15,956 nucleotides of DNA from a virus (taxonomy: Duplodnaviria > Heunggongvirae > Uroviricota > Caudoviricetes): IMG/VR virus record IMGVR_UViG_2778261418_000011, positions 1-15,956 of that record. One strand, written 5' to 3'. Positions within the stretch are counted from its first letter, which is position 1; each line of letters starts with the position of its first letter. Below, piece by piece: positions 14,560-15,956 of this stretch. The notes beneath the pieces are model-generated. The model was not told where the DNA came from and did not search any database. It saw only the letters and a list, made by a program, of their open reading frames with translations. The translations under genes and the position numbers were made by a program.

Positions 14560-14941
14560 TGCCGCCTCCTCCACCCCGCAGGCGGGAAAACAGGACGGAC
14601 ACCAGCGATGCAATATCCTGTTGGTGGATAAACGACAGAATCTTTACCGACACCACCGATACCAGCACCGCACACAGTGCATCCGCCGATGTACCGTCAT
14701 AACCTGTTTTTGCTGCAATCCAGGCTGACAGCACGCGCGCTCCCAGCACGCCGACAATGAACGACACCAGAAAATGTGCCGCCACCCGCCAGGCTGAAAG
14801 CGCCTGCGGCATCGTTGCCACAAACAACGCTCCGGCGAACGCCCCAAACACAATCCCGAAATCCGTCCCGGTAAACAGTCCGAATACCGTCGCCCCGCCG
14901 AGCGCAGCGGCTGTACCAGAACCGGATAAGGGTTCAGACAT
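14549..14941 (-). CDS. Holin-like membrane protein A (130 aa, several Gly/Ala-rich transmembrane helices)
   Basis: First gene of the lysis cassette, with GGAG 8 nt upstream of the ATG. Its Gly-rich C-terminus (RLRGGGGGNVK) is encoded by the SD of the next gene. Confidence 0.6.
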   Translation of the reverse strand: MSEPLSGSGTAAALGGATVFGLFTGTDFGIVFGAFAGALFVATMPQALSAWRVAAHFLVSFIVGVLGARVLSAWIAAKTGYDGTSADALCAVLVSVVSVKILSFIHQQDIASLVSVLFSRLRGGGGGNVK

Positions 14942-15183
14942 ACTTTTTCTCCTGTAAAGAAAAAAGGGCCACCAGCAGCCCGCAAAAAAACGCCCACCAA
15001 AGGCACCCGCAGATGCCTTTGGTGTGGAGTTATTTGATGTGCGCCGGTCGTGGCGCGAGGAAGTGAAATAAGACTTACCTGAAATTAAGGTTAATCTTAT
15101 GGTTTAAACCATTTTTAATGCTTAGTAATATGAACTCGTCCCCAGAAGGGGCCAATACTTATTCTTCTTCACGGACTTTGTCC

Positions 15184-15215
15184 CGCGGCGTTAATCCGAC
15201 AGCCGCGCTTTTTTT
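15184..15215 (+). terminator. Plus-strand-oriented terminator-like hairpin
   Basis: CGCGGC (15184-15189), 12-nt loop, GCCGCG (15202-15207), then C and T7 (15209-15215). Confidence 0.4.
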
Positions 15216-15250
15216 GCGCCATATTCATCGCTGACTTATATGGCATTGCC

Positions 15251-15286
15251 ACACGGACATTATCAGTGTCCGTGTTTTCTTTTTTT
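15251..15286 (+). terminator. Plus-strand-oriented intrinsic terminator
   Basis: Perfect 9-bp stem ACACGGACA / TGTCCGTGT with a 7-nt loop, followed by TTTCTTTTTTT. Confidence 0.55.
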
Positions 15287-15297
15287 GAATTCAGAAT

Positions 15298-15324
15298 AAA
15301 AAAAACCGCCCAATGGAGGCGGTT
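15298..15324 (-). terminator. Minus-strand intrinsic terminator between the tRNA array and the lysis cassette
   Basis: Minus strand reads AACCGCC-UCCAUUG-GGCGGUU followed by U8 (plus-strand A8 at 15298-15305). Confidence 0.6.
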
Positions 15325-15688
15325 GGTCAATGCATGAGATCAATCATTTTTATTGTAATAGAAATCGAGGTGTCGGGTGCCTCCCGAAATATCCATCCCT
15401 ACAACAGATATTGTGATTCCCCGTTAAACCACTATATAAACCACCCTCGCACTGAGGAACACCTCTGCGGTGCTGTTTACAACACCAGAATGATGCTTCA
15501 CCGACCCTGCCAGGAAATACAAAATCTCCACCGATAATGCATCATTCTGCTGCCGTAAAAATTCAGCACTGAGGCTACACCCGACCTCAAATCATAGCCA
15601 GAGAACAGAATACCATTTAAACACAATCCGCTCCCACGTAATAAAAAATACGCCAGTGCTGTAATACAATAAGGCTTATTACAAATGT

Positions 15689-15763
<75 letters not shown>

Positions 15764-15766
15764 ATA

Positions 15767-15842
<76 letters not shown>

Positions 15843-15844
15843 AC

Positions 15845-15921
15845 TGGACCGCCACCGGGGACTCGAACCTCGCACACTTAACTTAAAGGGTTGACGCTCT
15901 TTCCTGATGAGCTAGTGGCGA
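15845..15921 (-). pseudogene. Degenerate tRNA-like gene (possible decayed tRNA-Arg-like member of the array)
   Basis: A 77-nt cloverleaf can be drawn (acceptor stem with U1-G72, D-arm GCUC/GAGC, T-loop UUCGAGU, encoded CCA). However the anticodon loop is CCUUUAA (C where U33 is normally invariant), and there are A-C mismatches in the anticodon and T stems. Confidence 0.4.
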
Positions 15922-15922
15922 T

Positions 15923-15956
15923 TGGTGGCCCTTGCTGGATTTGAACCAGCGACCTG
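15923..15956 (-). tRNA. tRNA 3' fragment (T-arm and acceptor end; resembles E. coli ileX-type tRNA-Ile2), truncated by the window edge
   Basis: Reverse complement ...GGTCGCTGGTTCAAATCCAGCAAGGGCCACCA gives a T-stem GCUGG/CCAGC, T-loop UUCAAAU, acceptor 3' strand and CCA. The anticodon is outside the window. Confidence 0.5.

Follow-up and report, generated by a model that had tools for sequence, protein, structure and literature searches.

The window, by which we mean the whole 15,956-nucleotide stretch of DNA analyzed here (IMG/VR record IMGVR_UViG_2778261418_000011), is the late region of a lambdoid prophage, and all of its genes are on the minus strand. ARAGORN placed genes for tRNA-Lys, tRNA-Thr, and tRNA-Gly at 15689-15921, likewise on the minus strand. 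The full order of the array is Ile2/CAT, which is cut by the window end, then Lys, Thr, and Gly, and it is complete in a 99%-identical locus from the chromosome of a sheep E. coli isolate (L003). In that locus the genes run Q, a short open reading frame (ORF), a DNA methyltransferase, four tRNAs, the spacer, two holins, an M15 endolysin, and terminase. The initial annotation had singled out 15325-15688 as a 365-bp noncoding spacer between the tRNA array and the lysis genes. The region is indeed noncoding, but it is merely part of a gene-free stretch of approximately 747 nucleotides (14942-15688), and its lower limit, 15325, simply abuts the stem of a minus-strand intrinsic terminator (15324-15296). 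The tRNA-Lys of the window (15845-15921) scored merely 31.9 bits against the Rfam tRNA model and has several noncanonical pairs, and among relatives the tRNA upstream of tRNA-Thr varies in its anticodon, being Lys(ttt), Arg(tct), or Phe(aaa).

Matches to the 364-bp region were obtained in 422 of 5,426 complete E. coli genomes, where lambdoid prophages carry it; strain ECL27977 is a carrier, and E. coli W has a homologue. In 226 of those genomes the match covers at least 80% of the region length, at approximately 80 to 92% identity. Among relatives, the spacer block is flanked by differing Q types (Q, DUF1133) and holin types (EssD, a 130-amino-acid holin), and the block thus moves as an independent unit. 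Phage SerU-LTIIb (L002), an LT-IIb toxin phage, carries a duplication of the unit consisting of tRNA-Gly, the trailer that follows it, and holin1; the second copy is approximately 75% identical and is located upstream of the lysis and eltIIb genes.

Folded as RNA, the minus strand of the region has an energy of -135.3 kcal/mol (z = -5.3) and the plus strand an energy of -86.6 kcal/mol (z = -2.8). Two structured modules were delimited (Table 1). In the alignments of relatives, G·U cells outnumbered A·C cells by 67 to 4 in module 2 and by 287 to 38 in module 1. The RNA structure belongs to the minus strand, on which the tRNAs and the late genes are also read.

Table 1. Coordinates of tRNA-Gly and of the features that follow it in the window
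Feature	Positions	Strand	Description
tRNA-Gly(tcc)	15689..15763	-	ARAGORN; Rfam tRNA model, 65.6 bits; last gene of the array and 5' neighbor of the trailer
Linker, 28 nt	15661..15688	-	from the encoded CCA end of tRNA-Gly to the cloverleaf
Module 1, overall	15660-15476	-	96-nt cloverleaf, U-run, hairpin of ~27 bp
Domain I, cloverleaf, 96 nt	15565..15660	-	7-bp closing helix around three hairpins
Single-stranded linker GAAUUUUUAC	15555..15564	-	U-run directly after the closing helix
Domain II, hairpin of ~27 bp, nearly perfect	15476..15559	-	ACGGCAGCAGAAUGAUGCAUUAUCGG...UCGGUGAAGCAUCAUUCUGGUGUUGU
P0, putative alternative hairpin	15469..15486	-	GGUGUUG-UAAA-CAGCACC; compensatory variants, e.g., GAUGUU/AACAUC in alignments A2 and A4
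Module 2, overall	15466-15296	-	five-helix junction, A/U-rich tail, intrinsic terminator
Module 2 core	15362..15466	-	five-helix junction like that of STnc100
P1	15465-15460 with 15372-15367	-	one pair: UA 40, CG 28, UG 7
P2	15457-15454 with 15448-15445	-	one pair: UA 53, CG 21
P3	15444-15439 with 15418-15413	-	one pair: GC 48, GU 19, AU 8
Repeat of the initial annotation	15426..15444	-	RNA GUGGUUU-AUAUA-GUGGUUU: covers the 5' arm of P3 and extends into its loop
P4	15411-15404 with 15396-15389	-	31 distinct segments, every one folding to a single hairpin
P5 (CGGGAGGCACCCG hairpin)	15387-15383 with 15377-15373	-	invariant
Tail, A/U-rich, mostly unpaired	15325..15366	-	consensus fold; the equivalent position in PasD holds its seed
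Intrinsic terminator	15296..15324	-	AACCGCC-UCCAU-UGGGCGGUU, then U8; terminator scan

Module 1 starts a short distance past tRNA-Gly. The helix that closes its cloverleaf (domain I) is formed by AGCACUG (15660-15654) and CAGUGCU (15571-15565), with 97% of cells paired. Sequences only approximately 64% identical to the window each fold alone to the same cloverleaf, despite different hairpin sequences. Across 26 diverse sequences, 85.5% of the cells in module 1 are paired versus 39 to 49% when the partners are slid, and 30 pairs have changed on both sides, with none of 500 shuffles as high. The three inner hairpins of the cloverleaf are 72 to 78% paired, lower figures that are owed partly to MAFFT misalignment between divergent groups. 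The domain II helix, with a folding energy of -38.3 kcal/mol, contains 27 pairs, of which 13 show changes on both sides, and 92.7% of its cells are paired. Between the two domains the pattern CAGTGCTG-T(5-8)-AC is conserved (alignment A4) and was also matched in fetched loci; its U-run is 5 nt long in the window and mostly 6 to 8 nt in relatives. Hairpin P0 overlaps the 3' arm of domain II, and thus P0 and domain II are mutually exclusive. The likeness of domain I to tRNA is one of cloverleaf shape only. Indeed, ARAGORN found no tRNA in domain I, even at -ps80, and Rfam gave no match in 15565-15660 at an E value of ≤10, the tRNA clan included.

For module 2, IMG/VR was scanned for TTCGGGRGGCACCCGAC, yielding 113 stretches and from these 76 distinct sequences. 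An alignment collected by bait in this way is a biased sample of sequences that are related to one another, and P5 is invariant because the P5 17-mer served as the bait. Over 51 distinct cores, 96.6% of cells are paired, compared with 43 to 51% when partners are slid; 13 pairs have changed on both sides, and none of 500 shuffles reached the observed values. The minimum-energy fold of the window sequence alone did not reproduce P1. In the terminator that follows the tail, the stem is conserved and the loop variable, and in some relatives the stem itself is changed (ACAGCC/GGCUG, ACCACC/GGUGG). This terminator is predicted to mark the 3' end of the STnc100-like RNA, and a polymerase moving from the tRNAs toward the holin would meet it as the first barrier.

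In all, three minus-strand terminators separate the tRNAs from the holin, at 15324-15296, 15024-14995, and 14981-14966, the latter two in tandem (14966-15024) directly upstream of the holin ribosome-binding site. The 750-nt gap contains at least five terminator-like hairpins versus approximately 1.1 expected by chance. A plus-strand terminator (15251-15285) stands back-to-back with the minus-strand terminator at 15324-15296. The plus strand also has, at 15103-15215, a further unit that resembles a small RNA and runs antisense to the late genes. Its promoter-like TTTAAA (15103-15108) is separated by 17 nt from TAATAT (15126-15131); these are followed in order by a first hairpin (GUCCCCAGAAGGGGC), a U/C-rich single-stranded segment that is conserved (CAAUACUUAUUCUUCUUCA), a second hairpin (GGACUUUGUCC), and a terminator of the form CGCGGC-12 nt-GCCGCG then U7 (15184-15215). 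Ten relatives show compensatory changes in this unit (CCCC/GGGG to CUCC/GGAG; GGC/GCC to GGU/ACC). [quoted passage not shown]

An Rfam scan, one of the checks proposed along with the initial annotation, gave a suggestive result that fell short of the curated standard. The STnc100 model (RF02076) matched the minus strand of the window at 15294-15493 over its full length (model positions 1 to 206) with 19.1 bits (E = 0.08), but the window does not reach the gathering cutoff of 47 bits, and true copies score 94 to 147 bits. The CGGGAGGCACCCG hairpin and a GGUG/CACC closing helix are common to the window and the Rfam STnc100 alignment. Other Rfam matches at an E value of ≤10 were rejected: those to AgvB, isrK, Phe_leader, and anti-hemB come from the terminator only, and those to miRNA families reflect nothing but the long hairpin.

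The comparison was also made in the other direction with R1, a covariance model built from the core of the window family. R1 scores 109.8 bits on the window and, with all five helices aligned, 38.6 bits (E of approximately 4e-9) and 30.7 bits on loci that Rfam scores as true STnc100 (132 to 147 bits). Noise was calibrated by scanning species-representative genomes with the 17-mer, which gave 81 stretches. R1 confirmed one of these, from Escherichia ruysiae, at 114 bits; the others, from unrelated, mostly high-GC taxa, scored at most 26.7 bits or went undetected. Since unrelated genomes with the exact 17-mer reach no more than 26.7 bits under R1, the 38.6-bit match to STnc100 is above noise. 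Part of the R1 score on STnc100 stems from the common 13-nt hairpin, and the STnc100 copy of E. coli 06-00048 (L014) scored only 25.6 bits, within the chance range. On PasD (L018, L019), R1 gave approximately 7 bits, which is not significant; the tail at 15325-15366 does not contain UGUGAG, the seed of PasD, and blastn against the PasA, PasC, and PasD regions of E2348/69 found no similarity. The Rfam STnc100 model, for its part, scores PasD1 and PasD2 at 41.4 and 37.7 bits. We conclude from these alignments that module 2 is a divergent branch of the STnc100 family, having the same architecture and slot while falling below the curated cutoff. The STnc100/PasD family is thus larger than the Rfam cutoff captures. 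PasD and STnc100 have themselves been regarded as homologues (Zhu, Shabalina and Storz 2026, bioRxiv 10.64898/2026.05.13.724894). STnc100 copies are transcribed in EHEC cultures, one of them confirmed by Northern blot (PMC5331693), and PasD is Hfq dependent and abundant, with many RIL-seq partners (Pearl Mizrahi 2021, PMC8550237).

Two further settings of these RNAs were observed. One locus (L137:1388-1730) has a second, partial STnc100-like copy (…CGCATGATGAATCCCCCTAAGCGGTGGGG…) between the tRNA array and the true STnc100, which shows that the family can occur in tandem. Plasmid p48B2a (L013) and an 88-kb plasmid (L016) carry copies or fragments of the STnc100-like core with its upstream hairpin amid IS elements, where the neighbor is a gene for a heptose-phosphate phosphatase or an HTH gene and no tRNA lies close by.

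The position of module 2 relative to the tRNAs is nearly fixed. Of 117 informative loci, 96 have the P5 motif 285 to 306 nt past a tRNA on the same strand, and that tRNA is usually that of a Thr-Gly pair and sometimes Arg(tct). Canonical STnc100 also usually follows a same-strand array, Ile2-Arg-Arg, at 100 to 1,450 nt. Module 1 can stand apart from module 2. The cloverleaf starts 23 to 35 nt past tRNA-Gly in 20 further IMG/VR loci, and in these the P5 motif was not found in the available downstream sequence (up to 2.5 kb). The cloverleaf pattern is also present in relatives that are without the STnc100-like core (L004, L015, L017) and in L014, where the core is approximately 1.5 kb away; it is absent from all canonical STnc100 loci fetched. 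A loose search of IMG/VR with the cloverleaf pattern was set aside as yielding mostly chance matches, only 20 of the 107 new ones lying after tRNA-Gly. In the cargo-bearing relatives (L004, L014, L015, L017), homology to the window stops at 15469-15474, right after the module 1 hairpin, and the inserted genes (TerB, DUF3927, and others) are directly 3' of domain II. An exact cargo slot is thereby defined just past that hairpin, within the interval from the tRNAs to the lysis genes where Stx phages have stx. In some prophages (L012, L014, L017), module 1 is separated by TerB, DUF3927, and other genes from a canonical STnc100, which scores 94 bits in L014, and iraM and the holin lie beyond the STnc100 copy. 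L017 retains module 1 and the terminator region with approximately 55 nt in place of the core; the core is thus dispensable for the phage.

The statement in the initial annotation that no ORF with an SD sequence is present was borne out, as no credible ORF was detected, and a conserved in-frame ORF was not found in the region among the homologues compared. A 74-amino-acid plus-strand ORF (15313-15537) and a minus-strand frame that PGAP calls a hypothetical protein in two relatives were both rejected, each having stops or frameshifts in most of 10 homologues. Hypothetical proteins are nonetheless annotated in RefSeq and GenBank records over the RNA block at L005:2846-3244, L004:2837-3097, and L001:4230-4547 (WP_064226585.1, WP_000904532.1, and URC09393.1). 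Annotations of this kind could be taken to mean that the region is a decayed protein-coding gene, with RefSeq giving ORFs of 86 and 132 amino acids in L004 and L005 and a 105-amino-acid ORF being annotated in phage 683R6. Those ORFs, however, start at GTG and traverse terminator hairpins, their frame is not preserved but is interrupted by stops or frameshifts in the window and most relatives, and the annotated strand differs between records. The annotated proteins are probably spurious, and descent from a decayed gene is extremely improbable. A different proposal, made in the initial annotation, concerned the direct repeat AAACCAC-TATAT-AAACCAC, which was suggested as a possible late promoter, a binding element for a regulator, or a piece of a small RNA. 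The repeat exists exactly where it was reported (AAACCAC at 15426-15432, TATAT at 15433-15437, AAACCAC at 15438-15444), in a region that precedes the lysis genes. The region contains 2 exact 7-mer direct repeats whose gaps are at most 10 nt, versus a mean of 0.36 in 2,000 dinucleotide shuffles, but a fraction of 0.087 of the shuffles also reach 2 (P ≈ 0.09), and the whole window averages 0.5 per 364 nt. Among relatives, both GTGGTTT copies were kept in only 14 of 76 distinct sequences, and the TATAT core varied (AAAAG, TAAAG, TAGAT, TATGT). With the repeat neither significant nor conserved, the regulator-binding claim fell away. The promoter claim fared no better: the recommended promoter prediction, run over 14800-15956, found no sigma-70-like match of at least 9/12 (spacing of 16 to 18 nt) in 15325-15688 on either strand, and the sole match in the scanned interval sits within the tRNAs. 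The best match by eye, TTTCCT-16-CATCAT (7/12), is inside the module 1 hairpin, and an RNA from it would start at P0 (15486-15469). Scans of tRNA-less relatives gave near-chance 9/12 matches only. In L006, the candidate promoters TTGCGA-16-TATTAT and TTGCCT-18-TATATT are upstream of tRNA-Thr and downstream of a strong terminator after a Q-like gene. The candidate late terminator in related loci adjoins Q, well upstream of the tRNAs, which suggests that the late promoter is there too. Moreover, sequence change in the region obeys RNA pairing, with G·U pairs on one strand only. We therefore regard a promoter or regulator site at the repeat as highly improbable. The small-RNA option was the sole survivor of the three, the repeat being located in a covariation-supported minus-strand RNA. 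In the modeled STnc100-like core, the 5' GTGGTTT (15444-15438) is the 5' arm of helix P3, and the second (15432-15426) falls in the P3 loop, where most relatives read GUCGGUUU or ACUGUUU; this structure explains the repeat.

Conservation could instead act at the level of DNA, with the block serving as a recombination linker for swaps of lambdoid late modules and its structure being incidental. The block is common to prophages with different Q and holin types, and cargo enters at one fixed junction, at approximately 15470-15474, as would suit such a linker. This is very unlikely, however, given compensatory changes on both sides of 13 pairs in module 2 and 30 pairs in module 1, the strong excess of G·U pairs on one strand, and the retention of the same folds by groups that are only approximately 64% identical. 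More deserving of weight, though still unlikely, is that the RNA acts only in cis, as a structured leader or trailer governing how the tRNA/late transcript is processed, stabilized, or terminated (an RNase III, E, or P site plus a tR'-like terminator) and with no role as a trans-acting small RNA. The constant spacing to the tRNA, the finding of module 1 without module 2, the three minus-strand terminators from the tRNAs to the holin, and the lack of a promoter match would all fit, and a five-helix junction with almost no linker bases exceeds most Hfq small RNAs in complexity. Against it, discrete RNAs accumulate from both homologues, STnc100 and PasD, the latter with its Hfq dependence and many RIL-seq partners, and an A/U-rich tail with a U8 terminator is the usual 3' end of an Hfq small RNA. 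On balance, we consider it probable that the spacer serves as a transcribed 3' trailer to the tRNA array of the prophage, made up of two separable conserved RNA modules of which module 2 is a divergent small RNA of the STnc100/PasD family, and that it is not a promoter. Module 2 is probably an Hfq-associated regulatory RNA made in lysogens, by analogy to its better-known relatives, and we infer that module 1 is a processing or insulating element.

If the spacer is such a trailer, the tRNAs and trailer would be read as one RNA, either from a promoter ahead of the array or from the late operon. RNase P, E, or III may then cut at module 1, freeing the tRNAs and parting them from what is downstream, which is the small RNA here and cargo genes in relatives. 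The STnc100-like RNA would be excised from the tRNA transcript or made from its own weak promoter, would end at 15296, and may act via Hfq in lysogens as do PasD and STnc100. After induction, presumably only Q-modified polymerase would pass the terminators at 15324-15296, 15024-14995, and 14981-14966 to reach the holin. A limited search of Rfam 15 and the literature gave no description of a tRNA-linked prophage RNA like module 1, and its cloverleaf and hairpin constitute a new RNA motif supported by covariation. As a tentative idea that we put forward with some doubt, module 1 might represent a previously undescribed class of phage RNA tied to tRNA-Gly, possibly one that mimics a tRNA to draw RNase P, Z, or III to the late or tRNA transcript for cleavage. 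If so, cutting at module 1 would shield the tRNAs from the variable cargo that follows and would define where the STnc100-like RNA begins, and the fixed tRNA-to-small-RNA spacing would mean that tRNAs near Pas/STnc100 genes are cotranscribed phage genes and not remnants of integration sites.

In hundreds of E. coli genomes, the block is unannotated or mislabeled with spurious hypothetical proteins. One branch of the STnc100/PasD family is physically fused to a phage tRNA array, which points to cotranscription and processing, in contrast to a recent survey that took nearby tRNAs for integration hot spots.

Among the closest known systems is STnc100. Its copies share with the window the five-helix junction, the identical CGGGAGGCACCCG hairpin, the GGUG/CACC closing helix, a P2 loop containing GUGCG, and a terminator 45 to 60 nt past the core, and they occupy the same strand and slot in the lambdoid late region, between Q or the tRNAs and the lysis genes, usually downstream of a tRNA array. 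They differ in that their 5' leader and promoter region (AAATTTTTAAATAC..TTGACT) is missing in the window, where module 1 stands in its place, in the sequences of tail and terminator, and in the neighboring tRNAs, which are Ile2-Arg-Arg for STnc100 and Thr-Gly for the window family. PasD1 and PasD2 of EPEC E2348/69 likewise lie upstream of the holin in the late region, oriented with late transcription, and have a structured core, an A/U-rich tail, and a terminator; PasD is itself a subthreshold relative of STnc100. Unlike the window RNA, PasD is immediately preceded by a promoter-like TTGACT and does not adjoin a tRNA, and it is without detectable similarity to the window branch. The 3'ETS-leuZ and RtT of tyrT are RNAs that follow the final tRNA of an operon, ahead of the operon terminator, so that tRNA processing can release them; both are chromosomal and shorter than the window RNA. 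In the window, too, the RNA is flanked on one strand by the last tRNA and by the terminator, but its sequence is unrelated to these trailers of the 3'ETS type. StxS arises at a late-operon terminator that Q overrides, the terminated RNA being an Hfq small RNA in lysogens (PMC7547250). StxS starts at PR' right after Q, whereas the window RNA follows a methyltransferase gene and four tRNAs, with another terminator-like site nearer Q. StxS and lambda 6S RNA nevertheless resemble the predicted window RNA in being short transcripts ended by a late-region terminator.
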